Source: Escherichia phage vB-Eco-KMB35
Length of the DNA stretch: 43,891 bases
Strand: one strand, 5' to 3'
Sequence record: OR525704.1
How positions within the stretch are numbered: position 1 is the stretch's first letter; each line of letters opens with the position of its first letter. The translations under genes were made by a program, and so were the position numbers. Below, piece by piece: positions 4,298 to 43,231 of the stretch. The notes under the pieces are model-generated. The model made no database searches. It saw only the letters and a program-made list of their open reading frames with translations, and had not been told where the DNA came from.

Positions 4298-4326
4298 AAA
4301 AGGCCCCATTATGGGGCCTTAGTTTT
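4298..4326. terminator. Bidirectional hairpin ggcccc-attat-ggggcc between convergent genes
   Basis: GC stem flanked by A-run upstream and ttagtttt downstream. Confidence 0.6.
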
Positions 4327-4529
4327 CAACGGAATCTTGTGTTTAAATCCTGCTCATGGACAACCCTCAGAACAGTGTCATAATCCCCGTATCTTCCAGG
4401 TTCAAATATATCTAATGCCTTGTAAGCAGACATTGCGTCAGGGAAAACCTGCAGAACCTTTTTAACCCGGCACAAGTCACCGTCGAACTCTTCATCGAAC
4501 TCTTGAACTACTTCGCAAATTGCATACAT
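4326..4529 (-). CDS. Hypothetical small acidic protein (67 aa), reverse-oriented moron-like gene
   Basis: ATG at 4529 preceded by GGAGGTG RBS and the 32-bp promoter element; ends at bidirectional terminator. Confidence 0.6.
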   Translation of the reverse strand: MYAICEVVQEFDEEFDGDLCRVKKVLQVFPDAMSAYKALDIFEPGRYGDYDTVLRVVHEQDLNTRFR

Positions 4530-11904: not shown

Positions 11905-12133
11905 ACTCATCAATGTTACTCCTGTACTCCCGTAACTTTTCCAGACTTTCAATTGCTTCCGCTAAGTCGGTTCCGGTGTCCTTGTGTCCACGTAAACCCA
12001 TGCACAATAGCTTCTTCAATGCGTGCTGTAACGCCGGGTCGCGGATGTCGAAAGCGCGGAGCACATCATAAACGTCTACTGTCATAGTGCTGCCGTGAGT
12101 GTTTGTCATTGTTCGGTTGTATTTTGAAGTCAT
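11903..12133 (-). CDS. Hypothetical protein (76 aa), last gene of reverse cassette
   Basis: ORF overlapping stop of upstream gene (12130), ends at terminator. Confidence 0.5.
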   Translation of the reverse strand: MTSKYNRTMTNTHGSTMTVDVYDVLRAFDIRDPALQHALKKLLCMGLRGHKDTGTDLAEAIESLEKLREYRSNIDE

Positions 12134-13260
12134 CCCAGCATCTCCGGTGAAATAGTTAAACGTGCGACCTCGCCATATTCGGCGCTATAAGTAATTACAT
12201 TTGCACTACGGCCTGACATCCACCCGCCGCGGGAGGCATAGGCGTCTTTAGCCGCTAAGGTGCGGTGTTGCTCAACAATCATGTTACGGCTTTCTACAAT
12301 CTTCTGGTGGTGCAGGTGGCCTACGTGGGCGTAGCTATAGACACTCTCACCGAACGCTTTGCGGAATTTGGCAATCATAACCGGTTCGATAGCATCGAAT
12401 CGCGCCTTATGCCCGTGGTGAAAGAACAACGTCGTTTTTCCGTGTTGCACCATCTTGTAAACATCCGGCGACGTATCGACAATCACTCGGCTGTCGTTCG
12501 AATATAAAACTGTGAACATTTCAGCCAGCCATACAGAGCCTACAGGGTCATGGTTCCCCTGTACGATAAGCAAGCGAACATTTTTATGTTTAACCAGTGC
12601 CATATCTACAACACGGCGTACCATACGAATCATGTAGCGGACGAGTTTCTGGTAGCGAGTGTCTGCGTCCAACACGTGACGCGACTCAGGTGTAACGGCA
12701 TCCAGACTATCGAAGTGCGCGAAATCACCCAGCAGGTTAATAACTCCTGTTCCTGCATCCGGTGCTTTCTGAAACGCCGCGTCGAACCAACGAGAGAACA
12801 GGTCTTCCGCAATCTTTATATCCCAGTCGTCGCCGCTCTCGTCGGCCCAGGCAAGCATACCGAGATGGAAATCAGATACCGTGTAAAGATTGAGTAGCTT
12901 GTCGTCGCGTTTGGCTCGAGTCGCTTTAGCCGGCGCAACTGGCGTAATCTCTGACTTCATGCCTTCAATCACGGCTTTCATCAACTCGACCTGACGTTCA
13001 GCGTCGGTGTCTGTCTTAACCCATTGCAACTTAGTATTGCCGAACTCGTCTACCAGAGACGACGTCCCTTTAATCTTGTAGCCGTCTGGGACAAGGTGGC
13101 TAACGTCACGCCCGTGGCCTACACCTTTCTTAGCCAGCTTCGCTTTACGGATACGAATAACTCGGTCTGAGATGCCGTATTTACGGGCGATGTCTACATT
13201 CTTCATCCCGGCGTTCAATTCTTCCTGTAACTGTTCGTCGGTTATTTTCTTCTGGGCCAT
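12130..13260 (-). CDS. HTH-domain / calcineurin-like metallophosphoesterase fusion protein
   Basis: 376 aa; N-terminal HTH (NVDIARKYGISDRVIRIRKAK); phosphoesterase motifs SDFHLG, LGDFAHFD, GNHD, HHGH, GHLHH in canonical order. Confidence 0.6.
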   Translation of the reverse strand: MAQKKITDEQLQEELNAGMKNVDIARKYGISDRVIRIRKAKLAKKGVGHGRDVSHLVPDGYKIKGTSSLVDEFGNTKLQWVKTDTDAERQVELMKAVIEGMKSEITPVAPAKATRAKRDDKLLNLYTVSDFHLGMLAWADESGDDWDIKIAEDLFSRWFDAAFQKAPDAGTGVINLLGDFAHFDSLDAVTPESRHVLDADTRYQKLVRYMIRMVRRVVDMALVKHKNVRLLIVQGNHDPVGSVWLAEMFTVLYSNDSRVIVDTSPDVYKMVQHGKTTLFFHHGHKARFDAIEPVMIAKFRKAFGESVYSYAHVGHLHHQKIVESRNMIVEQHRTLAAKDAYASRGGWMSGRSANVITYSAEYGEVARLTISPEMLG

Positions 13261-13325: not shown

Positions 13326-13652
13326 CTATTTACTTTCTGCGCCTATCGCCCACCCTGTCATTACCATTTGCAGACGGGTGGCTGTCAGTAGGCTATAGAA
13401 AGCATCTCCGTTTTTCTCTACCGAACGTATCACTGTGTAGGTTACGGCCTGCGGGGGTAGGCCCGATTTACCAACCTCCACGGCGGCCTCACACTCGCGA
13501 ACTGTAGAGTCCTTGAACGCCTTTACAATAGTAGGGTCGGCTTTATCAAGCACACCAGAAGTCATAAGAACAGATTCACTAAATACCTGTTCGCACGGGG
13601 CTCCAAAAGTAGCAAAAGACATAAAACCCAGAGCTAGTACTAATTTACGCAT
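13326..13652 (-). CDS. Secreted/periplasmic protein (108 aa) with N-terminal signal peptide
   Basis: MRKLVLALGFMSFATFGA signal-like N-terminus; promoter element directly upstream. Confidence 0.55.
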   Translation of the reverse strand: MRKLVLALGFMSFATFGAPCEQVFSESVLMTSGVLDKADPTIVKAFKDSTVRECEAAVEVGKSGLPPQAVTYTVIRSVEKNGDAFYSLLTATRLQMVMTGWAIGAESK

Positions 13653-30198: not shown

Positions 30199-30212
30199 AA
30201 TTGATTCAGATA

Positions 30213-30927: not shown

Positions 30928-31116
30928 ATAAAATTTCGCAATACGGACTATGTTCTCGAAATCATTCATATCAACGGGTTCGAATTCATCCTCCACATGG
31001 TTGTATCGCACCATCGTGCCGTTCAGGAACGTAAACGATTCCGAATGGATATAACCGCCCCAGCGCCATATCATCACAAAATCTTTATCTGTGGGCATTT
31101 CATTTACTTGAATCAT
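30913..31116 (-). CDS. Hypothetical protein (67 aa)
   Basis: ORF with start overlapping upstream stop. Confidence 0.4.
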   Translation of the reverse strand: MIQVNEMPTDKDFVMIWRWGGYIHSESFTFLNGTMVRYNHVEDEFEPVDMNDFENIVRIAKFYLTPE

Positions 31117-32354
31117 TCTAAATCCTCCTCTGTTACCCTATTCCACTCAGGACGTTTGTCGTCTGCCGTTGCAACACATGGTGCGCCTGGCTTACGGGTA
31201 ATGAAGTCTTTCAGTTCTTCTTCCGGTATGACTTTAACCGCTTCGGTTGGCGTCATGAGCACTTGCTTCATTAGCGCTATGCCATACTTGCCAGCCACTT
31301 TCTCTGCGTCTTTCCACGCACGATTGCCCGGGCGGCCCTCAACCAGCTTGTACCCCGGCACTTTCTTACCGGAATGCAACGCGGTGGCCATCGCTTTCTC
31401 AACCTTGTCGATGTGCTGGCGCAACAACGGCAACTTCTCATATTCAGCTACGAGTTGCTCCGGCGTAAGTTCCAGCGCAAAGTCGTCCTCCAGTTCTTCC
31501 GCCAGTACAGAGTTAACGGTTTTTGTACGCGCGGCACACTGTTCAGAGAACCGACACCACTGACAACCATCTACAGACGGCTTGAAATCAGATGCTTTCA
31601 GGTTCTTCTTACCGCGGAAATACGCATCAAGCGCCAACAGTGCACGTTTCTTGGCAAACTTAGCGAACAGTTCAAGGCCTTCAACCGAGATGTCCCACTC
31701 CGACGCGCCGCCAGTGTACGGCTGGAAGATTACCAGACGAACAACTGTTATGTTATAACGTCTCTTGAGTCGGCGATAAACACCGAGAGCGTAAAGCATA
31801 AGCTGTTTGTTTTCTTTCGCTTCGACACGATGCCGCCCGGTTTTCAGGTCGCCGATAATGAGCATGTGCTCGTCGGTGTTTGCCAGTTCCTGTACAGCAA
31901 CGAGGTCAGCGGTTCCGAACGTCTCAACGCCTTCATACCCCGGATGCAATACCTCAGTAAGATTGACACGCATTTCCAGCTTGGCGTAAGTCGCTACGTC
32001 TATAATCGCTTTGCAGTAGTCGGTGTACTTGCGCACCTGCTCAATCATGTCCGCCGTAATCAGTACCGCGCCTTTCATCGGGCTGATTAGCGCCTTAATC
32101 TGACCTTTACCCTCATCCAGCACGTAAGCACCGACTTCACGTTCTAACGGCAGCGCAGTGCCACGGATATAGGCGTTTAGGTGCACTTCTGCGATTGTAT
32201 GGCATGCGGTCCCCGTAACGGCAGCTTTACCTGACGTGTTAGGAATATCTTTTTCACAGGCCAGTGATGCACTGCACGTCAGCCACTTCTTAGCACCTGA
32301 CGGCGACAATAAGGCGTGCACATCATTATTGCCACCGCGTTCTTTTAGAATCAT
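31113..32354 (-). CDS. PD-(D/E)XK-type nuclease (DUF2800-like, from memory)
   Basis: About 413 aa from ATG 32354 (RBS GGGAGAA); IGDLKTG...EAKENKQLMLYALG nuclease-like motifs; adjacent to SSB-like and polymerase genes. Confidence 0.55.
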   Translation of the reverse strand: MILKERGGNNDVHALLSPSGAKKWLTCSASLACEKDIPNTSGKAAVTGTACHTIAEVHLNAYIRGTALPLEREVGAYVLDEGKGQIKALISPMKGAVLITADMIEQVRKYTDYCKAIIDVATYAKLEMRVNLTEVLHPGYEGVETFGTADLVAVQELANTDEHMLIIGDLKTGRHRVEAKENKQLMLYALGVYRRLKRRYNITVVRLVIFQPYTGGASEWDISVEGLELFAKFAKKRALLALDAYFRGKKNLKASDFKPSVDGCQWCRFSEQCAARTKTVNSVLAEELEDDFALELTPEQLVAEYEKLPLLRQHIDKVEKAMATALHSGKKVPGYKLVEGRPGNRAWKDAEKVAGKYGIALMKQVLMTPTEAVKVIPEEELKDFITRKPGAPCVATADDKRPEWNRVTEEDLE

Positions 32355-32623
32355 GCTCTGTTCTCCCACTGGTCAATTAAATGCCGTGTCTTGTGGTCGC
32401 AATGTAAGGCCCATCCATACATCGACTCGAAGACATAAAAGTCGGGCTTGGCGAATGTCGTGCGTTTAATCCGCGACACGTGACGACCTATATCTTTAGG
32501 ACGCGGTACTTTGCCTAAGTACGCCATCTCTTCCATCTGGTGCGCACCGGACGGCGCACGCAACAGCCACAACGCCTCTGTGTTATCCCGCCTGTCTACG
32601 GCGCGGTAGAGTTGGTAAATCAT
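32351..32623 (-). CDS. Hypothetical protein (90 aa)
   Basis: ORF translationally coupled to nuclease gene. Confidence 0.45.
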   Translation of the reverse strand: MIYQLYRAVDRRDNTEALWLLRAPSGAHQMEEMAYLGKVPRPKDIGRHVSRIKRTTFAKPDFYVFESMYGWALHCDHKTRHLIDQWENRA

Positions 32624-33191: not shown

Positions 33192-33419
33192 TTACTCACC
33201 GTCGCCTTCAGTAAGGCTATCGTCTATTAGTTCAAATTTACCGTTTGAGTGTTGAATAGCTTCTTGCCCGCAATGGTCACAGACAACAAGTTTATCGAAC
33301 CCATCAAACTCATCCCCTACTACGCAAGAAAGTACAAATTTATGTTTTGTGCACACTTCTTGCGGAGCGCCGAAAATTGCTCGAAAACCTTTAGCTATGG
33401 CCCCAGTGATTGTGTTCAT
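33192..33419 (-). CDS. Small zinc-ribbon protein (75 aa)
   Basis: CxxC-like Cys pairs (C..C...C..C); RBS GAGAGGGG; first gene downstream of promoter 33447..33476. Confidence 0.5.
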   Translation of the reverse strand: MNTITGAIAKGFRAIFGAPQEVCTKHKFVLSCVVGDEFDGFDKLVVCDHCGQEAIQHSNGKFELIDDSLTEGDGE

Positions 33420-33446
33420 ATCTGCCCCTCTCGTTTGGTATGGGCT

Positions 33447-33476
33447 AACTATAATAGCGAACTATTCACATGTCAA
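33447..33476 (-). promoter_or_regulatory. Promoter element family B (minus-strand TTGACA-N17-TATAGT), early leftward promoter
   Basis: Consensus hexamers with 17-nt spacer; palindromic core TAATAG-N4-CTATTC. Confidence 0.6.
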
Positions 33477-33540
33477 TGGGCTTTTCTAAAATAATTAATA
33501 TGGTACTATTCACATATCAACTGACTAAGGAGTAATTGAC

Positions 33541-33756
33541 ATGCAACCATCTGAACTAGGTATCCGTGTAGAACAACGCCGTAAAGAACTCGGCATCTCC
33601 CAGCGCCGTTTGGCGGCCCTGACCGGCGTTTCCCAGGGCGCGATTAACCAACTGGCACTTGGAGTAACTCAGGACGTCCGCCCGGCAACGCTGTTCAAAC
33701 TGGCGGAAGTTCTGGAAGTAGACGCCAAGTGGCTGGCGTTAGGTGAAGGGGCTTAA
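33541..33756 (+). CDS. Cro/XRE-family helix-turn-helix transcriptional regulator
   Basis: 71 aa; LGISQRRLAALTGVSQGAINQL HTH; divergent from replication operon; AAGGAG RBS. Confidence 0.7.
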   Translation: MQPSELGIRVEQRRKELGISQRRLAALTGVSQGAINQLALGVTQDVRPATLFKLAEVLEVDAKWLALGEGA

Positions 33757-33773
33757 AGCCCCTTTCTTTTTAC

Positions 33774-36008
33774 CTATTCCAAATCCTCCTCTGTCACCAC
33801 CAGCATCTCATTTGGTTCGTATAGTGTCTTCGGCCTTAATCTATCCCCTATTCTTTCGGGTATACGATATGTTCTCGGTACTACTTCGCCGTTAGCATCG
33901 CAACCAAGCATTAGTTCTCCATCTTTCAACATTTTATCAAGATGGGTGTTAGTCACAGAGAAGTCACCGGAACGAGCCACTATCTGCTGCTGAGTAAAAC
34001 CGCGACCTGTGTCATCTGACTGTTGCAGGTCTTCCAGTGCCGAAAGTATTGACTCCTTCCTTACTTCATCCCTGCCGCGTTTAACTTCTTCCTTTACTTT
34101 TTGCTTACCTTCTTTCGTCAACCCTTCTTCCCGCTCTTTCTCCTCGTCAGTTTTGAACGGCTCGAAACCCCACGGCATCAACACAAGCGCCTTGTGTGGT
34201 TCAGGCAGGTCCAGGTTTACGATTGTGCCGTATTCCTCTGTGCTACCCAGGAACTCAACCGCTCGGTATTCTTTAGGCGGCGGCGCTTCACGGAACTGTA
34301 CCGACTCCAGCACCATGCCAACCGTCTTCTGCTGAGGCCCGTGCTTGAATTTCGAGTGATATACGTTTATCTGACGGTCGGTTGCACGTTCGATTGTCAG
34401 TTCCACGTCAACACCCGCATACAGCGCCCCACTGCCGCGTGCTTTCTTTCCACCCTTCGGCGTATGGTGGACAACGCCTACTGCGGCTTTAGTTGCATCG
34501 CGTACTTCTTTCAGAATGGCGATAACTTTACCCATGCCGATTGCTGTTGATGAACTGTTCTCGTCGAACTTATCAATCGTCAGGGCCAGCGTCTGGTTAA
34601 GGGTGTCGAAGGCAACCATGCCAATAGGTTCATCCCCTGCGGTTTCGCGCATTAACTTAATCAGGCTTTTAAGTTTGCCGACTTCGCCCATATCGATGAC
34701 GTGTACATAATCTTTACCTTCCCCGCCATATTTAGCCGCTAGTGCATCAATACGGGTGCGTGTAGCTGCGCCACCCTCACCATCAATATAGAAATGGTGG
34801 CAACGCTGGGTATCCGCCCCCGCAAACCGGTACCCGGCGGCGCTCAGGTACATCATCCCCAGCGTATAGAATGATTTGTACGTGCCAGATTCCCCGACGA
34901 TATCCCATATACAATCTGATGGCATGTACCCTTCAACGACGAAATCAGCCTTTACCGGCTCCGGTAACTCGTCCCCCTCTGAGTCCTCCTCTGAGTCCTC
35001 GTCGTCTTCCAGGTCGTCGAGGCTGCAAGTTACTGGGTCCTCGTTCTCTGTGCGGTGTAGTTCTTCAATCTCTTCATCCGGTAAATCAGGCAGAGCCGCA
35101 CGAATGCTGTTAATACTGATAGGTTGCTTGTCTACGTTAAGCTCGTCTGGCAGGCCGCACATACGCAGGGCCAAATGCTGTCGGCGGTTAAGCTCGGTGC
35201 AAGCGCCGTTGTTTGTATGCTGGCACACAAAGCGCACTTCTTTACCATCAAGCATGATGCTTGTGGAGCCTTTGCCTGTATGCAGATGTTCGTTAGGACA
35301 TGGGACTTCGTACCCGCGCCCGGAAGATAAAGCGTCAAGGCCAAGCTCGGCTTCGCAGAAATGCGCTATATCAGCGTTAAGCCCATACTCATCGGCGGCA
35401 AGTGTCTTAACTTCACGTTTACTCAACCCCATCTCTTCGGCTTTCTTGATGTACCGCTCGGCACGGATAACACGCCCTTCTGTAACCGTTATCTTTGACT
35501 CTCTATGTGGCAGATAGATAAGGCGGTTGCCGTCTTCCGTGCAGTGGTCACGCAAGGCTTCATCTATTTCTAACTCTGCACAAATAGCCCGTTGGACCAT
35601 CCACGCATCGTTAGAGTTAAACGGCGTGCGAGCCGGTACGAGAACGCGGAAGGCGTAATCACCGTTTTTACACACATGCTGATGCGATGCCGTTGTATGC
35701 AGAATATTGAAGAACGGTGCGTTCTTGAATTTGCGGGTAAGGTCGCGGTACTGAGTACGGTTGAGATGGTCAAAATCGAACTTAACCACACTGTCTTCCA
35801 GAATAGCGTTCTTACGGCGACCGCCAACAGGCGCAATAGCTTTCTGTTTAATCTTGGCCGCGTCGTACTCTTCCTTAGTCCATGACGGGTCCACGGATAA
35901 ACGCTTCGATGTATCGCAGACATACTCCACAAACTGCTCGAGCGGCATCTCACGCGCTACAGGGTTTTTATCGAATGTGTTACGCAGCGTTGCAAAAACA
36001 ATATTCAT
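33774..36008 (-). CDS. Bifunctional DNA primase-helicase
   Basis: 744 aa; central zinc-binding CPNEHLH...C...C; C-terminal RecA/DnaB-like Walker A GESGTYKS. Confidence 0.7.
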   Translation of the reverse strand: MNIVFATLRNTFDKNPVAREMPLEQFVEYVCDTSKRLSVDPSWTKEEYDAAKIKQKAIAPVGGRRKNAILEDSVVKFDFDHLNRTQYRDLTRKFKNAPFFNILHTTASHQHVCKNGDYAFRVLVPARTPFNSNDAWMVQRAICAELEIDEALRDHCTEDGNRLIYLPHRESKITVTEGRVIRAERYIKKAEEMGLSKREVKTLAADEYGLNADIAHFCEAELGLDALSSGRGYEVPCPNEHLHTGKGSTSIMLDGKEVRFVCQHTNNGACTELNRRQHLALRMCGLPDELNVDKQPISINSIRAALPDLPDEEIEELHRTENEDPVTCSLDDLEDDEDSEEDSEGDELPEPVKADFVVEGYMPSDCIWDIVGESGTYKSFYTLGMMYLSAAGYRFAGADTQRCHHFYIDGEGGAATRTRIDALAAKYGGEGKDYVHVIDMGEVGKLKSLIKLMRETAGDEPIGMVAFDTLNQTLALTIDKFDENSSSTAIGMGKVIAILKEVRDATKAAVGVVHHTPKGGKKARGSGALYAGVDVELTIERATDRQINVYHSKFKHGPQQKTVGMVLESVQFREAPPPKEYRAVEFLGSTEEYGTIVNLDLPEPHKALVLMPWGFEPFKTDEEKEREEGLTKEGKQKVKEEVKRGRDEVRKESILSALEDLQQSDDTGRGFTQQQIVARSGDFSVTNTHLDKMLKDGELMLGCDANGEVVPRTYRIPERIGDRLRPKTLYEPNEMLVVTEEDLE

Positions 36009-36133
36009 TTCTTTTTCTCCGCACGTTCTAAGGCTTCCTGCATACGGCGCATTGCGCGGTTCATCTTTACCGGTGCGAAGAAGTCAGCGCCGTGTTTCTG
36101 TCGGCGCAGCTGTGGAACTATTAACTTCGTCAT
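36005..36133 (-). CDS. Small basic protein (42 aa)
   Basis: ORF below track cutoff; AAGGA RBS; stop overlaps primase start (ATGA). Confidence 0.35.
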   Translation of the reverse strand: MTKLIVPQLRRQKHGADFFAPVKMNRAMRRMQEALERAEKKK

Positions 36134-36202
36134 TGTATAATCCTTGTGCTTACTTTGATGATTTGTGCTTTGGCCCCGACGTTCTTGCGTTGGGGTTTCT
36201 TT

Positions 36203-36493
36203 TTACCGTTTAGCCAACCCTTCCAGCAAATTTTTATACTCTTCAAAATATTCCTCGACCAAATCATCGCCGAAATAGAAGTCGATATACTCGAGATTAT
36301 CTCTTACGTTAAGCGATGCCGACATGGTGCTTAGTTGGCGTAAGCTAATTAGCTTCATTTCTGTTTCTACGCAGAAAGGCCGGTAGGTATCAAGATGGCA
36401 AGAGATATTGAAGCATAAAGCGAACTCTCCGGCCACGGAGTGAACCATATACACTTCGTTTTCTGCTTTATTGTGGAAAATTACGCCTTTCAT
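36203..36493 (-). CDS. Hypothetical protein (96 aa)
   Basis: ORF in replication operon, overlaps upstream gene stop. Confidence 0.45.
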   Translation of the reverse strand: MKGVIFHNKAENEVYMVHSVAGEFALCFNISCHLDTYRPFCVETEMKLISLRQLSTMSASLNVRDNLEYIDFYFGDDLVEEYFEEYKNLLEGLAKR

Positions 36494-36672
36494 TTCACGT
36501 TCTCCTTAATCCATGCTTCGACTTTATTACGGTCAAATGTTCCCGGTAAACGGCGGCCCATAACCTTAATACAGCAGTCAGGGAATTTGCCGCTGCGCAA
36601 CCAGTTATTAATGGTCTGACGTGTCACCCCGATACGCTCGGCTACCTCATTCTGTGTCATGTAATGTTGCAT
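36490..36672 (-). CDS. AlpA/excisionase-like HTH DNA-binding protein
   Basis: 60 aa from ATG 36672 (RBS AGGGGA); MTQNEVAERIGVTRQTINNWLRSGKFP matches AlpA-type HTH pattern. Confidence 0.6.
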   Translation of the reverse strand: MQHYMTQNEVAERIGVTRQTINNWLRSGKFPDCCIKVMGRRLPGTFDRNKVEAWIKENVK

Positions 36673-36703
36673 TTTTATATCCCCTGTTTGTTTAGTGAAA
36701 CCG

Positions 36704-36732
36704 AGTATAGGATAGCGGGAATGTAAAAGCAA
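36704..36732 (-). promoter_or_regulatory. Minus-strand promoter TTGCTT-N17-TATACT for the leftward early operon
   Basis: Hexamers (read on minus strand) with 17-nt spacer about 30 nt upstream of AlpA-like gene. Confidence 0.45.
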
Positions 36733-36769
36733 CCAATCCCTGCAATATTTAATCTTTACAAAAAAGTTA

Positions 36770-36799
36770 TTGAAAGTTCTTGACACATGTTTGTATAAT
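36770..36799 (+). promoter_or_regulatory. Plus-strand promoter TTGAAA-N18-TATAAT
   Basis: Consensus -10, good -35, TG adjacent to -10; divergent from the minus promoter. Confidence 0.5.
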
Positions 36800-36805
36800 G
36801 GTTTT

Positions 36806-37026
36806 GGGACTTGTATATATTACGGAGTTGACGAACCCTCCCCGAGGGATTCGTCAACCCCTCCCAGACAGCTGAGATGCTTGCCTTGTGGTTTAAGGAT
36901 AAGTGTATCTAAATCTCATTTAAAGAAGTAACCCGCTGAAATATCTACTGTTTCTTAATGTGCCGTAGATTCGCAACCGTAAAAATGTAACGATTATTGG
37001 GCAGGCTTAGGGCCTGCCCTTTAGTT
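36806..37026 (+). ncRNA. Candidate small non-coding RNA (promoter to terminator, no ORF)
   Basis: About 220 nt between promoter 36770..36799 and terminator 36999..37026; 13-bp imperfect hairpin 36828..36857; longest ORFs 10-11 codons. Confidence 0.35.
36999..37026 (+). terminator. Intrinsic terminator gggcaggc-ttagg-gcctgccc then tttagtt
   Basis: Perfect 8-bp GC stem with T-rich tail. Confidence 0.6.
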
Positions 37027-37091
37027 ACCAAGTAATAAGAATAAAGGCACAACAGTTTCGAAAGAATCACAACGGCAACGTAACTATTCTC

Positions 37092-37123
37092 TTGCACACC
37101 CCAACATAATAGGATACTATTCA
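37092..37123 (+). promoter_or_regulatory. Promoter element family A (TTGCAC-N17-TACTAT), copy 3, rightward early promoter
   Basis: 30/32 identity to copies at 4554 and 13678 in opposite orientation; 30 nt upstream of ORF 37155. Confidence 0.6.
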
Positions 37124-37154
37124 CTTATCGAAACGAGACAGAGGAGTGAGGGTT

Positions 37155-37346
37155 ATGTTTAAGAAGGGTCAGTTGGTTATAACTAAACGCGGAGGGCAAT
37201 ATGTATTAGTGTTGCAGGACGAGAGCGAGTATGACGAGGATAATCTGGTTGACGTATGGGGTCTGGTAAGAAAGAAAACTGGGTTCGCCTCACGCGATAA
37301 TTTAGAACTCATCGGCAACAATTTTAAATTCAAAGGGGCGAAGTGA
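37155..37346 (+). CDS. Hypothetical small protein (63 aa)
   Basis: ATG with GAGGAG RBS. Confidence 0.5.
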   Translation: MFKKGQLVITKRGGQYVLVLQDESEYDEDNLVDVWGLVRKKTGFASRDNLELIGNNFKFKGAK

Positions 37347-37582
37347 TGCAAATCATAATTACGGATAACACAGTTGCCTACGAAAAAGGTGGCGACAATA
37401 CTCTGGAAAGAATAGGCGTAAATATAGGTGACGTTTTTGATGTGCTTGGTACTGTATCAGGCGGTTGGTGGATTAAGGTTGGACGCAACAAAGTGCCAGT
37501 AACTAAGGCCGAAGCGGAAATATACACAACGGCATCGAATCATGATGCTCGTGCCAACGACTCTGAGGGAGGTTGCCGTTAA
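37346..37582 (+). CDS. Hypothetical small protein (78 aa), paralog of next gene
   Basis: Start overlaps upstream stop; shares I-ITD...GV-GD-F-V pattern with 37582..37773. Confidence 0.5.
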   Translation: MQIIITDNTVAYEKGGDNTLERIGVNIGDVFDVLGTVSGGWWIKVGRNKVPVTKAEAEIYTTASNHDARANDSEGGCR

Positions 37583-37773
37583 TGAGAATTCGTATAACTG
37601 ATGTTGATTATGTGGACCCGCGCGATGGTGACGATTTGTCGCTTAGTTACTGGGGAGTTTCGGTAGGTGATGAGTTTGAGGTTTCCCTTGCTGGTTCCGA
37701 TATGTTCATTATCGAATGTGACGCCGGATATGTGGTTGTGCACTCCTGTGAGTGTGAGGTTCTGGAGGACTAA
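37582..37773 (+). CDS. Hypothetical small protein (63 aa), paralog of previous gene
   Basis: TAATG overlap; RBS GAGGGAGG. Confidence 0.5.
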   Translation: MRIRITDVDYVDPRDGDDLSLSYWGVSVGDEFEVSLAGSDMFIIECDAGYVVVHSCECEVLED

Positions 37774-37776
37774 GTT

Positions 37777-37920
37777 ATGAGAGGAGCATTTGAACGGTGG
37801 GCCGTAGTCGAGGGTCTGCCGGTTAACAAGGGTTCGAAGAAAGAGTACCTGAACGTTAAGACGCGTCTCGCGTGGCGGGCGTGGAAAGCTGGTGTGCAAA
37901 CGGTGGTGAATACGAGGTGA
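37777..37920 (+). CDS. Hypothetical small protein (47 aa)
   Basis: ORF below track cutoff filling the gap between neighbours. Confidence 0.35.
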   Translation: MRGAFERWAVVEGLPVNKGSKKEYLNVKTRLAWRAWKAGVQTVVNTR

Positions 37921-37923
37921 GAT

Positions 37924-38112
37924 ATGAGCGAGTGGATTAAGTGTAGCGAGCGGATGCCAGAAGAGCTTGAGGATGTACTGGTTACTGATGGTAGGTCCGT
38001 AGAAGTTATGTACCTCAGATTCGGCCTCTGGTACGTAACATCCCCGGATTCTGCTATTTGTGGGGATGAGGTTACACACTGGATGCCGTTACCAGAACCG
38101 CCGGAAGTGTGA
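37924..38112 (+). CDS. DUF551-like small phage protein (from memory)
   Basis: 62 aa; MSEWIKCSERMPE...HWMPLPEPP pattern. Confidence 0.5.
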   Translation: MSEWIKCSERMPEELEDVLVTDGRSVEVMYLRFGLWYVTSPDSAICGDEVTHWMPLPEPPEV

Positions 38113-38259
38113 TGTTCAATAGTTTGGGATTTTACTGTGTGACTTACGCTGCTACACAGCAGCGTATCATTTTTCTCATTTTTGTTCTATTTCACCAAAC
38201 GCAACAATCGAAGCGACTATTGCAGGAGACGCAACAATACAAACACCAATAAAATTTAC

Positions 38260-38291
38260 TTGCACACTAATATAGAGTAGGCTACTATTCA
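38260..38291 (+). promoter_or_regulatory. Promoter element family A variant (TTGCAC-N17-TACTAT), copy 4
   Basis: Same hexamers and spacing; TACTATTCA core; 28 nt upstream of ORF 38320. Confidence 0.5.
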
Positions 38292-38319
38292 TTTACACAA
38301 ACGAGAGGAGAGACAGAAT

Positions 38320-38469
38320 ATGGTTACTTTGATGATTATGGAATTCGAAAACAGCGCCGCAACTTATCGCGAGATGACTATGGCGCAGGCGTACCGCCTG
38401 GCCTCGAACGGCAACTTCTACAAGGCTCAAATCATCAATGAGTTCGGGGTAATTGACTATGAATTTTAG
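38320..38469 (+). CDS. Hypothetical small protein (49 aa)
   Basis: ORF below track cutoff, preceded by conserved leader aaacgagaggagagacaga. Confidence 0.4.
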   Translation: MVTLMIMEFENSAATYREMTMAQAYRLASNGNFYKAQIINEFGVIDYEF

Positions 38470-38731
38470 AAGCTACACCGTGACCGTTGATTTTGAGGGG
38501 CTGGAGTTGCCCCTCCCTAACAACTACAGGTATATAACTCGTGACCGTTTCGGGTTTATTCAGGGGTGGCGGAACAAACCTACAGACACTGAGTTCGGGA
38601 TGTCTGGCGGCGAAGAGTTGCCGATCACTTTCGGGCATCAGAGTAGTCACGAAGAGCTTAAAACGGTGATTCGTAAGTATCGCCGCCGCGGTAACACGGG
38701 GCTTATAGCAATAACAGGCGCTGTTGAATAA
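38459..38731 (+). CDS. Hypothetical protein (90 aa)
   Basis: ATG overlapping upstream gene end. Confidence 0.45.
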   Translation: MNFRSYTVTVDFEGLELPLPNNYRYITRDRFGFIQGWRNKPTDTEFGMSGGEELPITFGHQSSHEELKTVIRKYRRRGNTGLIAITGAVE

Positions 38732-38748
38732 ACGAGAGGAGAGACAGA

Positions 38749-39174
38749 GTGAACACTAAAAACGAAGTATTCGAGTACCTGATTGACCAACTACGGCAGC
38801 AGGTGAACAACAGCCCGTACAAGCAACAGTGCGAAGACCTGGCGCACGAGGTGTTGTCACTCAAGAATCAGTTACGTGATGCTTCGGCGCAGATTAAGGA
38901 GTTGCATCTGGCTCTGGCCCAAGCTACGGGTGACGTGGAGGCGTATAAACTTATCCGCAAAGGTGGGTACGTTTCCGCAGGCCAGCGCTACGTGGTTGGC
39001 GAACATGCGCCCGGGCCAACGGTAAATTGTCGGTGCACACAGACGCCTGTACCGCCGGAGCAATCTGGTTGCCGTAAGGAAGATACGCAGGAGTGCCGCC
39101 ACGACTTTGAATACATATACCCTGAAAGCGGGGTGCACCGTCATTGTATTAAATGTGGATGGATAACCGAATGA
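38749..39174 (+). CDS. Hypothetical protein with C-terminal Cys-rich zinc-finger-like region (141 aa)
   Basis: GTG start after the same 19-nt leader as 38320; CRC...C...C...H..CIKC cluster. Confidence 0.5.
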   Translation: MNTKNEVFEYLIDQLRQQVNNSPYKQQCEDLAHEVLSLKNQLRDASAQIKELHLALAQATGDVEAYKLIRKGGYVSAGQRYVVGEHAPGPTVNCRCTQTPVPPEQSGCRKEDTQECRHDFEYIYPESGVHRHCIKCGWITE

Positions 39175-39374
39175 CCAGCATCCTCTTTATCTGGGTACTG
39201 TCCGCAGGCCAGATGCAACTCGCGGCATCAGAAACGTTTTACTCGATGGAGGCGTGCCAGTCAGCGGCACGCGCCGCTGAGAACGCGCACTTTCTGTTTC
39301 AGGGTGACAAGCCCAACGATTCAGAGGTACGCGCTATCTGCTCACCTAAGCGACTTGGAAAACAGGAGAAATAA
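39171..39374 (+). CDS. Small protein with signal-peptide-like N-terminus (67 aa)
   Basis: ATGA overlap with upstream gene; N-terminus MTSILFIWVLSAGQMQLAAS. Confidence 0.45.
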   Translation: MTSILFIWVLSAGQMQLAASETFYSMEACQSAARAAENAHFLFQGDKPNDSEVRAICSPKRLGKQEK

Positions 39375-39375
39375 C

Positions 39376-39579
39376 ATGGTACAGAGATATTCTAAGTATG
39401 GGTCCGACAACCATTTCATTGACCGCCACGGGAAGTGGGTTAAGTTTGAGGACTACCAGAATCTTGACCTAAAGCTGTTGGAAGTTGAAGCCGAGTTACA
39501 GAAATACAAGGACCAGTTCCCGGATTACGTCGAGTGCGCGAACTGTGGGTCAGTTACACATGTGGGAGGGGTGGAGTGA
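39376..39579 (+). CDS. Hypothetical small protein (67 aa), paralog of next gene
   Basis: RBS AGGAGAA; shares MV-RY...G-WV--EDY--L--KL-E with 39579..39758. Confidence 0.5.
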   Translation: MVQRYSKYGSDNHFIDRHGKWVKFEDYQNLDLKLLEVEAELQKYKDQFPDYVECANCGSVTHVGGVE

Positions 39580-39758
39580 TGGTGCATAGATACGAAAACG
39601 ACCACGGCGATATGTTTCAGGCCGCGGGAGGGCGCTGGGTCCTATACGAAGACTACGCGGAGCTGGCGCGTAAACTGCGCGAGCTTGCTAAGCAGGTAGT
39701 AAACAGTCCGTGCGACTGGAAGACGGATGAATTAGCGCGCGAGATTCTGGACCTATGA
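39579..39758 (+). CDS. Hypothetical small protein (59 aa), paralog of previous gene
   Basis: ATG overlapping upstream stop (TGATG). Confidence 0.45.
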   Translation: MVHRYENDHGDMFQAAGGRWVLYEDYAELARKLRELAKQVVNSPCDWKTDELAREILDL

Positions 39759-40048
39759 GCCTTGCAACTGACATCCTGAAACGGAGCGGCCTTGCGCCGC
39801 TGTCGCCGAGAGCGAACACACGAATATACAAGCGCCGCCGTAATGCGCTGTACCCTGAGATTCAGGCCAGACGCAAAGCAGTCCGCGCCTGCGGATTCCA
39901 GAACGGAAAGGCCGTGAATCTCGGTGAGTTTAAAACAAAGGAACGTGCGGCTATCGCTAATCGGTTATTTAATTACTGGAAATCGCTGGGTTATGAAGAT
40001 ATTCCGACGAAACCACAGAGACGACAATACATCTGGCGTCATAAATAA
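39755..40048 (+). CDS. Small basic protein, possible AP2-like DNA-binding domain
   Basis: 97 aa; NGKAVNLGEFKTKERAAIANRLF resembles AP2/HNH-associated DNA-binding motif (weak). Confidence 0.35.
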   Translation: MSLATDILKRSGLAPLSPRANTRIYKRRRNALYPEIQARRKAVRACGFQNGKAVNLGEFKTKERAAIANRLFNYWKSLGYEDIPTKPQRRQYIWRHK

Positions 40049-40078
40049 ACCGTTATTAAGATAATTCCTAACCGTGCT

Positions 40079-40118
40079 ATCCTCCAGTTACTGCATACTT
40101 AATACGCACCTGGAGGAT
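40079..40118 (+). promoter_or_regulatory. RNA hairpin sequestering the holin Shine-Dalgarno (atcctccag ... ctggaggat)
   Basis: 9-bp perfect inverted repeat; 3' arm contains GGAGGA located 6 nt before TTG start at 40124. Confidence 0.4.
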
Positions 40119-40123
40119 TCATC

Positions 40124-40432
40124 TTGGATAAATTTACTGAAACAGTGACAGGCTGGCTTCTCGCTGCCGCACTAGCCGGAGGGGTAATCGGACTAAGGCA
40201 ACATAAGTCCGCTATTTCCGGCCCTATCGACGGCTTCTGCTTTATTGCAACTGGCTTCACTTGCGCCGTATTTGGCGCACCTCTCGCAGCTCAATGGTTT
40301 GGAATCACGGGCGACCGTGAAATCGCAGGCCTGGGCTTCATTATCGCTATTCTCTGGATGCCTATCTATTCCCGTCTGTCCGGTATCGTCGCCGGAGAAT
40401 ACATCGCACGTCGAGGAGGCCCGGATGAATGA
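40124..40432 (+). CDS. Holin (three predicted TM segments), TTG start
   Basis: 102 aa with three hydrophobic helices; immediately upstream of second TM protein and endolysin. Confidence 0.6.
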   Translation: MDKFTETVTGWLLAAALAGGVIGLRQHKSAISGPIDGFCFIATGFTCAVFGAPLAAQWFGITGDREIAGLGFIIAILWMPIYSRLSGIVAGEYIARRGGPDE

Positions 40433-40697
40433 GTTATTCTGGTTCTGCGGTATGCTGGCAATCGGAGGCACATCGCTGTTTAATGTGTATCATCCCAGCG
40501 TTGACGACGGGCTATTTGGCCGGGTGCTCTATATCCTGACTGCTATTGTCTGCGCCGCAGGATGTATCCACCTGTTACAGGGCAGCATGTCTCCGACGCT
40601 GCCTGAGACATTAATCACATTAGTTGCGCTGCGCCAGATTCGTCAGGCGTGGCTGTCATACGGAGGACATAAGCGTGTCTCGAAATATTTCAGATAA
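40425..40697 (+). CDS. Second holin-like / antiholin membrane protein (two TM segments)
   Basis: 90 aa from ATG 40425 overlapping holin stop (ATGAATGA); two hydrophobic helices. Confidence 0.5.
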   Translation: MNELFWFCGMLAIGGTSLFNVYHPSVDDGLFGRVLYILTAIVCAAGCIHLLQGSMSPTLPETLITLVALRQIRQAWLSYGGHKRVSKYFR

Positions 40698-41163
40698 TGG
40701 ATTGCATTTCACCGCTGCGTTCGAGGGATTCCGCGGAACTGCATACCGCGCTACGCCGAACGAGAAGTACCTGACTATCGGGTACGGGCACTATGGGCCG
40801 GACGTAACCCCGGGTAAGACCATCACACCGGGGCAAGGCCTCCTGTTACTGAATCGCGATATGGCTAAGGCCGTAGCTGCGGTTGATGTGGCGGCACACC
40901 ATTCGCTGACACAGGCACAGTTCGACGCTGTGTGCGACCTGGTCTATAACGCCGGTGCTGGTGTGATTGCAGCTGCTACCGGCACAGGAAAGGCGCTGCG
41001 TTCTGGTGACATCGCGACACTGCGGGCTAAACTGGCGCTGTTTATCAACCAGAACGGCAAACCGTTACTTGGTCTGCGCCGCCGTACTGCCGGGCGTCTT
41101 GCACTGTTTGACGGCAAGCCGTGGCAGGAGGCGGAGGCCATTGGGCGCGCGGTGAAAGGTTGA
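40675..41163 (+). CDS. Endolysin, T4 E-like lysozyme (glycoside hydrolase family 24-like)
   Basis: GTG 40675 with GGAGGA RBS; FEGFRGTAYRATPNEKYLTIGYGH matches T4 lysozyme EG-R--Y-D--G--TIG-GH catalytic region. Confidence 0.8.
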   Translation: MSRNISDNGLHFTAAFEGFRGTAYRATPNEKYLTIGYGHYGPDVTPGKTITPGQGLLLLNRDMAKAVAAVDVAAHHSLTQAQFDAVCDLVYNAGAGVIAAATGTGKALRSGDIATLRAKLALFINQNGKPLLGLRRRTAGRLALFDGKPWQEAEAIGRAVKG

Positions 41164-41229
41164 CACCTGAGACTAATCCGACGATACTTAAATCACCCCC
41201 TGTTCCATACCTCTGCTCTCCAGTTTTAT

Positions 41230-41260
41230 CCCGGCCCTGACCCAGCCGGGATTTTTTTTA
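41230..41260 (+). terminator. Intrinsic terminator cccggc-cctgaccca-gccggg followed by T8
   Basis: GC stem plus long T-run after endolysin. Confidence 0.7.
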
Positions 41261-41281
41261 TCTATTTTCTGCAATGACTAG

Positions 41282-41310
41282 TTGACTATTACCTACGACC
41301 CTATTATATT
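41282..41310 (+). promoter_or_regulatory. Promoter TTGACT-N17-TATATT
   Basis: Good -35 and -10 hexamers with 17-nt spacer directly after terminator. Confidence 0.5.
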
Positions 41311-41343
41311 TACTCCATCGACAACGAGAACGGAGTAGAGAAG

Positions 41344-41647
41344 ATGAGTAACGTACAGACAATCGCAATAACCGAGGAACTTGAAGCCAAATGTATCGCA
41401 TGGACTATGGGTAATGACCAGGTTGCTATGCGTAAATTTCCAATGAAAATCACAGACATCGAAGCGTAATGACCAGGTTGCTATGCGTAAATTTCCAATG
41501 AAAATCACAGACATCGAAGCATTCAAAGATGCACAACTGATGGCACGTATTGCCGTTGGCAACCTGAGCAACAATATCCCGGCGGACGCGTTCTGGTTCG
41601 CTGCTATGCAGACACTGAAAGCAGCTTATGCAGGAGAGAAGAAATGA
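41344..41647 (+). pseudogene. Small gene split by a 55-bp tandem duplication (N-fragment 41344..41469, C-fragment restart 41483..41647)
   Basis: Removing one 55-bp copy restores a single 82-codon ORF; with both copies the frame shifts and stops at TAA 41467. Confidence 0.55.
41411..41520 (+). repeat. Perfect tandem direct repeat, 2 x 55 bp
   Basis: 41411..41465 identical to 41466..41520; flanking bases differ. Confidence 0.95.
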
Positions 41648-41841
41648 AAGTTAAAGCCGCTAAAATTCTCTGGTTAGCCGCCCTTGACTATGTCACAGAG
41701 GGTAAAGTGTATGATGTATACAACCCGACAGCTACTGGTTTCGGTTATATAGACTCCGACGACGACTGCCATATTTTCATAGACTTTGGTAACGATGACG
41801 GTGATGGTTTCCACGGCGTTAAATGGGAGGTTGTAGAATGA
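41644..41841 (+). CDS. Hypothetical small acidic protein (65 aa)
   Basis: ATG overlapping upstream stop. Confidence 0.5.
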   Translation: MKVKAAKILWLAALDYVTEGKVYDVYNPTATGFGYIDSDDDCHIFIDFGNDDGDGFHGVKWEVVE

Positions 41842-41999
41842 GCGAACAAGGTCAAGTAAGCCAACCATTACGAGTAGGCCGTAAGGTGAGTCACACCCCG
41901 TTCCCGACACGCGAGGAACTGATGAAACGTAACAGTTTCCCTGGGCCGGACAAGAACAAGTATCTCAACCGCATGTGGGGAGAGCGTAAAAATGACTGA
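41838..41999 (+). CDS. Hypothetical small protein (53 aa)
   Basis: ORF below track cutoff; RBS GGGAGG; ATGA overlaps at both ends. Confidence 0.4.
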   Translation: MSEQGQVSQPLRVGRKVSHTPFPTREELMKRNSFPGPDKNKYLNRMWGERKND

Positions 42000-42177
42000 C
42001 CGTGAATATGAAAAGATGATGGTAGAGGCCGTTAACGGCGGCGTAGACATTAGCCACGTGATGTGCGTCCTGAATAATAAAATCGCGGTAGCCGAGCAAA
42101 TGGTGGAGTCGCTTTATGAGACGCGCCGCGAACTGATTAACCGCTTCAACCTGAACAAAGGTGACACCAATGCCTAA
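41992..42177 (+). CDS. Hypothetical small protein (61 aa)
   Basis: Translationally coupled ORF. Confidence 0.45.
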   Translation: MTDREYEKMMVEAVNGGVDISHVMCVLNNKIAVAEQMVESLYETRRELINRFNLNKGDTNA

Positions 42178-42469
42178 AATCACAATTGCATCGCTCGAGC
42201 GCCGTATTATGGTGCTTGAGTCGGAGAAACAGACGTTAGGCGGGCAACTGTCAATTAACGGTGAGTTTCAACTGGAGGCGTATAAAGAACTTCTAGAGGC
42301 GTTTAAAGAGCTACAAGCCATCGCGTCTGACATAGAAAATATGATTGGATTGTTGCAATCCGGGGAGTGGGCCGAACACTGCACTAAATCGGCGTTAGGA
42401 AAACGGCTTGAGACGGAGATTACTGACATGCTGAGTTGTCTTGTTGAGGCGCCAGATGAGCACGCCTGA
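42170..42469 (+). CDS. Hypothetical coiled-coil protein (99 aa)
   Basis: ATG 42170; heptad-like helical sequence. Confidence 0.45.
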   Translation: MPKITIASLERRIMVLESEKQTLGGQLSINGEFQLEAYKELLEAFKELQAIASDIENMIGLLQSGEWAEHCTKSALGKRLETEITDMLSCLVEAPDEHA

Positions 42470-42638
42470 GCCGGTAGTTATCGATGGCGTCCTGTGGAAA
42501 CCTTACTCGGTTAACCACATCGACGCCGATGGGAAGAAGTTCAGTTTCTACATTTTTGCGATTAGCCGTGAGCACGCTGCGTGTGTAGTAGACGATATAC
42601 GAGAAACGGCGTGGCTTGGCGATGAGATAGTGGGGTGA
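42456..42638 (+). CDS. Hypothetical small protein (60 aa)
   Basis: ATG 42456 overlapping upstream gene. Confidence 0.45.
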   Translation: MSTPEPVVIDGVLWKPYSVNHIDADGKKFSFYIFAISREHAACVVDDIRETAWLGDEIVG

Positions 42639-42642
42639 GAGC

Positions 42643-42726
42643 ATGAGTCTTGAGGTTGTTATAAGTCTGGTTGGTCTTAGTTACTTCATTGGGCTATTGG
42701 TCGGTTTTCTGTGGGGTAGATACTAA
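42643..42726 (+). CDS. Very small hydrophobic peptide (27 aa, single TM helix)
   Basis: MSLEVVISLVGLSYFIGLLVGFLWGRY; coupled to flanking ORFs. Confidence 0.3.
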   Translation: MSLEVVISLVGLSYFIGLLVGFLWGRY

Positions 42727-42896
42727 TGTTCAGCGACATCAACGCAGCAATCGAAGAAGCAATCTGGCGCCGTTACAACGGCGAGCAACAGCGTCACTTC
42801 TGCCTGGTGCAACGTGGTAACATGGTCGCCGTGGTGCAGGACCGCGATAACAAATATCCGAATGCGATGTGGACAACGAGGAATTTCTTAGGATGA
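42726..42896 (+). CDS. Hypothetical small protein (56 aa)
   Basis: ORF below track cutoff; TAATG overlap with preceding peptide ORF. Confidence 0.35.
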   Translation: MFSDINAAIEEAIWRRYNGEQQRHFCLVQRGNMVAVVQDRDNKYPNAMWTTRNFLG

Positions 42897-43129
42897 TTAC
42901 CAGCATTCCTAACCTGATTAAAGAATATGGCACGATGGCCGAGACATGCCGACAAACCGGCATCAACGAAATGACTATTGCTAAGTACAGCAAAGATGTT
43001 AACTGCGATCGCCACGTAATTTTTAACAACCGTCTGATGACGCACGTTAAGACAAGCCCGGTGTTATTCACGCGCCGGGGTATCACTAAAACAGAGCAAC
43101 GCATTGCTAAAGAGGAGAGTGGGGAATGA
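42893..43129 (+). CDS. Small HTH-like DNA-binding protein upstream of small terminase
   Basis: 78 aa; AETCRQTGINEMTIAKYSK HTH-like segment. Confidence 0.4.
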   Translation: MITSIPNLIKEYGTMAETCRQTGINEMTIAKYSKDVNCDRHVIFNNRLMTHVKTSPVLFTRRGITKTEQRIAKEESGE

Positions 43130-43231
43130 GACTACTAGTCTTTCCGAATTCCTGGGCTATCGCCGTAGCTAACGACCATTACGGCGGCGACGGTAAACGA
43201 GCGCCACGCCACGGCCTATATAACTGATACA

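Follow-up and report, generated by a model that had tools for sequence, protein, structure and literature searches.

In the modular theory of Susskind and Botstein, short conserved intergenic sequences lie at the borders of exchanged genes, where they have been proposed as guides for homologous recombination. For lambdoid and other mosaic phages, such conserved boundary or 'linker' sequences between modules were reportedly described by Clark et al. in 2001 in work on HK620. T4-type phages carry promoter-early stem-loop (PeSL) cassettes, which consist of a σ70 early promoter, a stem-loop, a Shine-Dalgarno (SD) sequence and a start codon and are repeated in variable regions; mini-circles arising when neighbouring cassettes recombine count among their features (Arbiol et al. 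2010, PMC2839356; Comeau et al. 2014, PMC4122927). In strong σ70 early promoters of phages, such as T5 N25 and T7 A1, the first ∼20 transcribed bases are purine-rich, which supports escape; purine-rich initial transcribed sequences with GG or GA near +6 favour promoter escape in T5 N25 and others (PMC12464699, PMC5961368). In the Kagunavirus fBC-Eco01, the repeat tgAATAGTa-ccTATTat-T, present in seven copies per genome, was predicted by PHIRE to be a 'phage promoter' (PMC9825357).

To judge from sequence, PeSLs are the closest described system to the four promoter-leader cassettes analysed here, denoted P1-P4, to which they appear alike in working without being homologous. Both are short, repeated cassettes with a σ70-like promoter (identified here by sequence only) that end at an SD and a start codon; in the present cassettes, conservation stops at the ATG. 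Both stand in variable regions ahead of small genes of unknown function, both have (here at P1-P3) a terminator associated with the promoter, and both bound the indels and replacements seen between close relatives. In contrast to PeSLs, whose shared element is a G/C-rich stem-loop within the promoter, the shared element here is a purine-rich transcribed leader, and the sole element found within the promoters is a weak 5-bp A/T palindrome, AATAG-N4-CTATT. The terminators lie 23-95 nt upstream of the -35 box, whereas the PeSL stem-loop is integrated in the cassette. There are four to five leaders per genome compared with about 50 PeSLs concentrated in hyperplastic regions, and one leader copy is, unlike a PeSL, a joint without any promoter. 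The lineage differs as well: the present phages are Guernseyvirinae siphoviruses of ∼44 kb, and their cassettes have no sequence homology to the PeSLs of T4-type phages.

Compared with the lambdoid linkers, the boundary described here has an identifiable expression function (promoter and 5′ UTR) and is repeated within one genome. With T5 N25 and T7 A1 it shares the purine-rich start; its sequence is not homologous to theirs and keeps AACGAGA as an exact word, and the effect on escape was reported for those systems. The PHIRE repeat of fBC-Eco01 corresponds to the element overlapping the -10 region of P1, P2, P4, P5, P6 and P7 in our genome. The fBC-Eco01 report covers the promoter/operator core only and mentions neither the AACGAGA leader nor a role as a joint (PMC9825357). 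More generally, the literature on promoters and transcriptomes of Kagunavirus, Jerseyvirus and Guernseyvirinae yielded software-predicted promoters only (the PHIRE motif), with no mapping of transcription start sites and no measurements of promoter activity or translation. The promoter core is therefore already known, and for the leader and its joint role we found no earlier description in this literature.

Leaders and promoters in the window

The window, that is, the whole stretch of 43,891 nucleotides analysed (Escherichia phage vB-Eco-KMB35, OR525704.1), is a near-complete genome of a Kagunavirus (Guernseyvirinae). A 4.7-kb query around the leader region matched 407 phage records, all of them Guernseyvirinae, the best being Escherichia phage NicoleGrasset_Bas72 (Bas72; 94% identity, 91% of the query covered). 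The window has about the length of one whole genome of this kind, the relatives measuring 41-45 kb. Between 24 and 36 kb lie leftward genes for replication and recombination, and rightward operons of small ORFs, together with the holin and endolysin genes, occupy 36.9-43.9 kb. Because an exonuclease, a Gp2.5-like SSB/annealing protein and a resolvase are all encoded by the phage, the means for short-homology recombination are present.

The 19-mer AAACGAGAGGAGAGACAGA (repeat family D11) occurs exactly at 38299-38317 and 38730-38748 in the whole window. No further match with up to three mismatches was found in the window, and no match at all was found in 100 dinucleotide-preserving shuffles. A search of the window for weaker copies with GAGAGGAGAGACAGA, again allowing three mismatches, returned only the two known ones; the full leader is thus not a general ribosome-binding site (RBS) of the internal genes. 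Copy 1 ends 2 nt before its ATG, and copy 2 directly adjoins the GTG of the following gene. Seventeen of the 19 bases are purines, and the SD core, AGGAG or GGAG at 7-9 nt from the start, reads as an ordinary one with 5-6 bp to the anti-SD.

The heptamer AACGAGA is present in nine copies on the two strands of the window, an unremarkable total given ∼5 expected from sequence length. Five of these nine lie at most 25 nt upstream of a start codon (37132, 38300, 38731 and 41323 on the plus strand, 33435 on the minus strand), and four begin 11-12 nt after the -10 hexamer of a σ70-like promoter; by our own estimate, ∼0.001 copies are expected by chance at such promoter-spaced positions. The proteins encoded behind the leaders belong to different PHROG families (4653, 6094, 12538, 32657) or to none. 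These results bear out the first-pass annotation in so far as it had reported an identical 19-mer at 38299 and 38730, related versions ahead of 37155, 41344 and, on the minus strand, 33419, and unrelated genes behind them.

The leader is, in four of five cases, what a predicted promoter (P1-P4, see the table) would transcribe first, and would therefore represent a promoter-proximal 5′ UTR rather than a free-standing RBS. The earlier proposal of a standardised RBS was right about the conserved leader but had overlooked the promoters of these four. All four promoters have a 17-nt spacer, are intergenic and point at the next gene; in each, the seventh base past the -10 box, where the start is expected, is an A. 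We infer that AACGAGA falls at about +6 to +13 of the transcript and that the whole leader would form a 5′ UTR of 22-30 nt. The -35 boxes of P1 and P2 match the consensus at three of six positions, and both promoters were missed by the consensus scan. A terminator-like hairpin precedes three of the promoters; that of P3 lies inside the conserved P3 block (conservation 0.83-0.93), those upstream of P1 and P2 lie outside the strongly conserved block, and P4 has no such hairpin.

Table. Coordinates of the predicted promoters, leaders, hairpins and genes (positions in the window; TSS, transcription start site)
Feature	Position	Strand	Remarks
P1	-35 TTGCAC 37092-37097; -10 TACTAT 37115-37120	+	11 nt to AACGAGA
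P1 leader	predicted TSS A37127; AACGAGA 37132-37138; GGAG 37143-37146; ATG 37155	+	
P2	-35 TTGCAC 38260-38265; -10 TACTAT 38283-38288	+	11 nt to AACGAGA
P2 leader (copy 1)	38299-38317; predicted TSS A38295; AACGAGA 38300-38306; AGGAG 38306-38310; ATG 38320	+	
P3	-35 TTGACT 41282-41287; -10 TATATT 41305-41310	+	12 nt to AACGAGA
P3 leader	predicted TSS A41317; AACGAGAACGGAGTAGAGAAG 41323-41343; ATG 41344	+	
P4	-35 TTGACA 33476-33471; -10 TATAGT 33453-33448	-	12 nt to AACGAGA
P4 leader	predicted TSS A33441; AACGAGAGGGGCAGAT 33435-33420; ATG 33419	-	
Terminator-like hairpin	36999-37019	+	∼75 nt upstream of P1 -35 box
Terminator-like hairpin	38145-38166	+	end of P1 operon; ∼95 nt upstream of P2 -35 box
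Terminator-like hairpin	41230-41259	+	CCCGGC...GCCGGG + T8; 23 nt upstream of P3 -35 box
X	38320..38469	+	49 aa, DUF7170/phrog_4653
Y	38462..38731	+	about 89 aa, phrog_1972
Leader copy 2	38730-38748	+	RBS of Z; SD core 38737-38741
Z	38749..39174	+	141 aa, phrog_6094, GTG start

In total, about eight related promoters and five leader copies are found in 43.9 kb. The leader stands behind three promoter cores (TTGCAC/TACTAT, TTGACT/TATATT and TTGACA/TATAGT), and related cores occur without it: the AACGAGA leader is absent at the P1-type TTGCAC...TACTAT sequences at ∼4585(-) and ∼13715(-), which precede isolated minus-strand genes, and at the P4-like promoter 30927(-). Leader and promoter core are therefore separable modules, and the fact that the P1-type copies are always directed at a gene supports the promoter reading.

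These additional promoters have some features of their own. The P1-type copies (TTGCACACCCCAATATAATAGGGTACTATTCA) span ∼4545-4585(-) and ∼13676-13716(-) within the plus-strand structural region, and have leaders without AACGAGA. The first is followed by a 67-aa ORF (4326..4529), the second by 13326..13652 and the gene of an SbcD-like exonuclease (12130..13260). The P4-like promoter at 30927(-), TTGACA-17-TATAGT, precedes the Gp2.5-like gene with a leader of ∼60 nt (30840-30927), which contains the hairpin CCGGGCAGCTTCCCGG, only degenerate copies of the box (AAACGAAAC and AAGCGAGAA) and no clear SD.

P2 overlaps the palindrome (A/G)ATAG-N4-CTATT. Its half-site TGAATAGT occurs seven times in the window compared with 0.83 expected, at 4554-4561(+), 13678-13685(+), 30912-30919(-), 33461-33468(-), 33505-33512(-), 37116-37123(-) and 38284-38291(-). 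In seven promoters, AATAG-N4-CTATT lies, in one orientation or the other, across the -10 region or the spacer. The palindrome matches the fBC-Eco01 consensus tgAATAGTa-ccTATTat-T (PMC9825357). No RNA polymerase of the phage's own can be recognised in this group, so the PHIRE element more probably acts as an operator inside promoters of the host type. Its appearance fits an operator for a small HTH protein (33541..33756 on the plus strand or 36490..36672 on the minus strand) better than a promoter for a phage polymerase.

Upstream of P1 lies a further, near-consensus promoter, TTGAAA-18-TATAAT at 36770-36799(+), with 11 of 12 matches. It is followed by ∼220 nt without a convincing ORF, and this region closes with the terminator hairpin listed for P1. 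The predicted transcript, 36806-37026, folds with -70.8 kcal/mol (z = -4.07; none of 200 shuffles folds as well), and ∼36948-37133 is 79-89% conserved even in Salmonella Jerseyviruses. No Rfam match was found for the predicted transcript, which is a possible phage small RNA.

The promoterless leader copy and the X-Y module

The two leader copies bound a module of two ORFs, X and Y (38320-38731), and copy 2 begins inside the TAA stop codon of Y. A promoter scan of 38600-38750 found no promoter-like site, and copy 2 is therefore promoterless. The two exact copies pointed out earlier are thus real, but that the second lacks a promoter and lies at the end of an inserted two-gene module had escaped notice.

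The order P2-leader-X-Y-leader-Z is found in the window, in Bas72 and in six further relatives. Two other relatives lack the X-Y module, and in these the P2 leader continues straight into the Z homologue. In Schulenburg, the order is P2-leader-X-Y-leader-K-Z, with the module ahead of a different gene, K, which in three other relatives stands directly behind the P2 leader. Since X-Y is present or absent and stands before different genes in the relatives, the 431-bp unit of two ORFs and one leader is, as far as gene order can tell, a module located between leader copies. The presence or absence of X-Y was read from listings of the loci, where it is clearer than in the global pairwise alignment of the window with one of the two relatives lacking the module; there, the single leader was aligned to copy 2 and no clean gap was seen.

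A promoterless second leader is also present in eight relatives, namely the six with the same gene order, Schulenburg and one more, with partly decayed AAC positions. Exact identity of the two 19-mers is limited to this genome and Bas72; in Schulenburg and three of the six, the two copies differ at one to four positions. Z is the first gene behind a promoter and an AACGAGA leader in other genomes, for example in the Salmonella Jerseyviruses 5sent1 and SHWT1, the latter of which reads TTGACG-17-TACTAT-11 nt-AACGAGAGGGG..ATG-Z. In many Salmonella records, the alignment to the query begins exactly at the first base of the leader.

As part of a reading in which the leader is both expression cassette and recombination joint, copy 2 is probably the right-hand joint of the X-Y module and doubles as the RBS of Z. 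It would be a promoterless leader left behind at the right end of the two-ORF module, now serving simply for the translation of Z.

The start of Z itself deserves a remark. Its first ∼27 nt (38749-38775; ATGAGTAACAAAAACGAAGTATTCGAG in most relatives) are nearly invariant even among alleles with an overall protein identity of only 35-60%, and the 5′ end of the gene is joined to many different upstream sequences (loci L018-L043). The 5′ end of Z seems to be a second recombination joint.

Conservation and mosaic breakpoints in relatives

Mean pairwise identity among 28 unique P2 regions, numbered from the first base of AACGAGA, was 0.84-0.95 at -50 to +9 and 0.80 at +10 to +19, and directly after the ATG it was 0.42 and then 0.29. 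In a gapped alignment, the block from -60 to +19 stands out as an 80-bp island with an identity of 0.87-0.92 in 27 relatives and with variable flanks on both sides. P3 behaves similarly: its mean pairwise identity was 0.86-1.0 from the -35 box to the start codon, compared with 0.29-0.42 after the ATG for P2 and P3, and the cassette is conserved from its terminator through the ATG. The first genes behind these cassettes are of at least 14 different kinds for P2 and at least 11 for P3. At the P4 site, most relatives have AACGAGAGGAGAGAAACAAATG, followed by at least three different first genes. The P1 leader is shared by 19 unique relatives, and in Kagunavirus the same gene always comes next.

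P2 is restricted to Kagunavirus (116 GenBank phage records), and the P3 cassette is present in 443 GenBank phage records, 325 of them from Salmonella phages. Several relatives had been retrieved by exact match to the leader, which inflates the apparent conservation; the claim therefore rests on the independently retrieved subsets, in which the leader is still seen. In the Salmonella Jerseyvirus 5sent1, whose selection did not depend on the motif, all 24 positions of the P3 leader are the same. When P3 was located by its -35 and -10 boxes only, AACGAGA was present in 25 of 27 unique copies and the whole leader in 23. AACGAGA is common to all leader classes, whereas the sequence that follows it is class-specific and is kept in both genera. 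A degenerate scan of the collection with TATAGT-N11-13-AACGAGAG returned, among the matches listed, mostly unrelated contigs.

The first-pass annotation had held that the leader itself is conserved and not the genes behind it, and had asked whether the motif is anything beyond an extended SD. The conservation of AACGAGA, outside the SD, in relatives and across two genera supports it on both points, but the role of the leader as a breakpoint throughout a phage group had been passed over. On the evidence of the alignments, the leader is a mosaic breakpoint of this group. Random illegitimate joints, of which selection retains those with functional expression signals, could likewise give breakpoints at the start codon and would look the same in these data; we infer that homology, rather than selection on random joints, places them.

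A further difference between the window and Bas72 concerns the gene that comes first after P3. Its frame is shifted by a perfect tandem duplication of 55 bp, 41411-41465/41466-41520(+), which is absent from Bas72; the gene encodes 83 aa in Bas72 and is split here into a 41-aa ORF (41344..41469) and a 54-aa ORF (41483..41647, starting MKITDIEAF). The MKITDIEAF form of the gene stands directly behind the P3 leader in other relatives. The duplication could be a real mutation or an assembly artefact.

Proposed function of the leader and competing explanations

We favour, with some reserve, the view that the 19-mer is the 5′ UTR module of the σ70-type promoters by which this phage recruits the host RNA polymerase, acting at once as a portable expression cassette and as a recombination joint. 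Transcription would start ∼5 nt upstream of the motif, and at its 5′ end the mRNA would read A(U/C)..(A)AACGAGA and continue in purines only, including a GGAG or AGGAG SD at 7-9 nt from the start codon. Such a purine-rich start of the transcript would aid escape of RNA polymerase from strong promoters, and the almost pyrimidine-free leader would fold neither on itself nor onto most coding sequences. Because a leader with almost no pyrimidines cannot fold, the RBS would stay open whatever gene stands behind it, which makes the cassette portable. These effects on promoter escape and translation are deduced from the sequence and the literature.

The computed structures are consistent with this proposal. 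The predicted 5′ ends of the P2 and P3 mRNAs gave z-scores of +1.64 and +1.94, respectively, with 197-199 of 200 shuffles folding at least as well. When the leaders were combined in silico with 32 foreign coding starts from relatives, opening the RBS required on average 2.5 kcal/mol with P2 and 3.7 kcal/mol with P3. Thirty upstream 27-mers used as controls had a mean of 6.7 and a minimum of 3.4 kcal/mol; a few of these segments are off by 1-2 nt from the true start, and they are treated as arbitrary 27-mers and not as native RBSs. The P1 and P4 leaders are not unusually open (6.2 and 5.2 kcal/mol). The notion of a standardised translation-initiation region is thus supported by an SD core at a regular distance from the start in an essentially unstructured leader and by the lowest computed opening energies being those of the P2 and P3 versions across the 32 downstream genes. 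Nothing points to the alternative raised together with it, a site for a translational regulator: there is no RNA structure, and a search of 30000-43891 at a permissive threshold gave no Rfam family above threshold, with three sub-threshold chance matches, none of them at the leaders.

As to the second role, the same block recurs in all genomes of the group, at several places in each, which would make it a joint for homologous recombination. Downstream genes would be exchanged, inserted or deleted by homologous recombination at a block of ∼20-80 bp, either by the phage exonuclease together with the Gp2.5-like annealing protein or by host functions.

A generic purine-rich, unstructured leader does not require the exact word AACGAGA, and this leaves room for a sequence-specific function. 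The exactly invariant heptamer in four leaders and two genera suggests sequence-specific recognition of some kind. One such idea can stand alongside the cassette and would complement it: the box, at about +6 to +13, would be recognised specifically and would thereby co-regulate the four operons. We regard this as possible and give it a minor share of our confidence. The box might be recognised by a phage or host factor that binds the DNA immediately past the start site, or by one that binds the mRNA 5′ end, such as a translational repressor or activator, a nuclease or a stability factor; in a variant, the single C-G step of AACGAGA would programme a pause during initial transcription. CG steps in initial transcribed sequences do slow promoter escape in parallel assays (PMC5961368), but no candidate binding protein was identified, and AACGAGA is not palindromic, forms no RNA structure and has no Rfam match. 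The heptamer is common to four leaders that are otherwise class-specific in Kagunavirus and Jerseyvirus, and because each class keeps its own tail across both genera, concerted evolution or gene conversion is an unlikely source of the shared word; yet P5, P6 and P7 have the same promoter cores without it. The AAC is changed in ∼4 of 7-8 promoterless copies (AGCGAGA, AGTGAGA, AGTGAGG) compared with 4 of 28 promoter-linked P2 copies, a comparison of few and phylogenetically linked sequences; the greater decay would fit a function tied to the promoter or the mRNA 5′ end. Carried further, AACGAGA would be a dedicated control site of the early and replication operons in all Guernseyvirinae by which four operons are switched together, a tentative suggestion to which we assign the same low weight. 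A phage or host factor might load there, or cause a pause, while acting on the polymerase during initial transcription; alternatively, the site would be bound at the extreme 5′ end of the mRNA. The promoterless copies would then be non-functional relics, free to decay.

It is unlikely that the leader is only an ordinary SD that hitch-hikes with duplicated or recombined promoters, the identity between 38299 and 38730 being the scar of a recent duplication. The ordinary SD core, the total AACGAGA count near expectation and the restriction of the identical 19-mers to this genome and Bas72, with drift elsewhere, agree with such an origin. Against it, the leader is kept behind three unrelated cores in two genera while spacers and neighbouring genes diverge. 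The identity of the P3 leader at all 24 positions between the E. coli and Salmonella phages also contrasts with flanking coding DNA that is ∼75-80% identical or unalignable, and the P2 and P3 mRNA 5′ ends are less structured than those of almost all shuffles.

That AACGAG acts as a σ70-dependent promoter-proximal pause element of the λ pR′ type, for loading of a Q-like antiterminator, we consider highly improbable. AACGAG matches the natural λ element AACGAT (+1 to +6) at five of six positions (PMC4005639). The box lies in the early transcribed region of promoters just downstream of terminators, and P3 stands upstream of packaging and structural genes, but the same box also precedes the leftward replication operon (P4), and no Q-like protein was identified. 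T(-7) and A(-11) of the -10 element are the bases most needed for binding by σ region 2. The one mismatch, G at position 6, falls at the position equivalent to T(-7); moreover, AACGAG matches TATAAT at only two of six positions, and none of the four leaders contains another TAnnnT-like hexamer. With the critical T missing, a σ70 pause was rejected as the main explanation. Two further candidates were discarded: a structured cis-regulatory RNA leader, given the lack of an Rfam match in 30000-43891 and leaders that fold less well than shuffles, and resemblances to Hfq (A-R-N repeats), CsrA (GGA in loops), IHF or DnaA-box sites, none of which fitted when the leaders were inspected by eye.

The leader is real and not a chance feature, and its explanation as a fairly ordinary expression cassette and joint is coherent and rather conventional. 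If genes are exchanged at a fixed promoter-leader joint, as proposed, this would account for the turnover of the small genes of unknown function that head the early operons. The group affected comprises common E. coli and Salmonella phages with more than 440 sequenced genomes, which are used in phage therapy and as synthetic-biology chassis. The leaders offer precise anchors for the annotation of start codons and operon starts. The natural cassette of ∼80 bp, a promoter with a non-folding leader that tolerates many different downstream genes, is compact, and its position is an obvious place at which payload genes could be engineered into Kagunavirus genomes. That regulatory cassettes double as recombination joints, the idea put forward for PeSLs, would thereby extend from large T4-type myoviruses to small siphoviruses.

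A separate observation concerns the leftward replication and recombination genes. The helicase-primase (33774..36008, minus strand) and the exonuclease (31113..32369, minus strand) share the acidic C-terminal tail VTEEDLE*; the underlying 23-nt repeat, at 33774-33797(-) and 31113-31136(-), has an identity of 91% (families D4 and D9). By analogy with the acidic C-terminal tails of the T7 replication proteins, VTEEDLE* may be a shared docking motif for a common partner.
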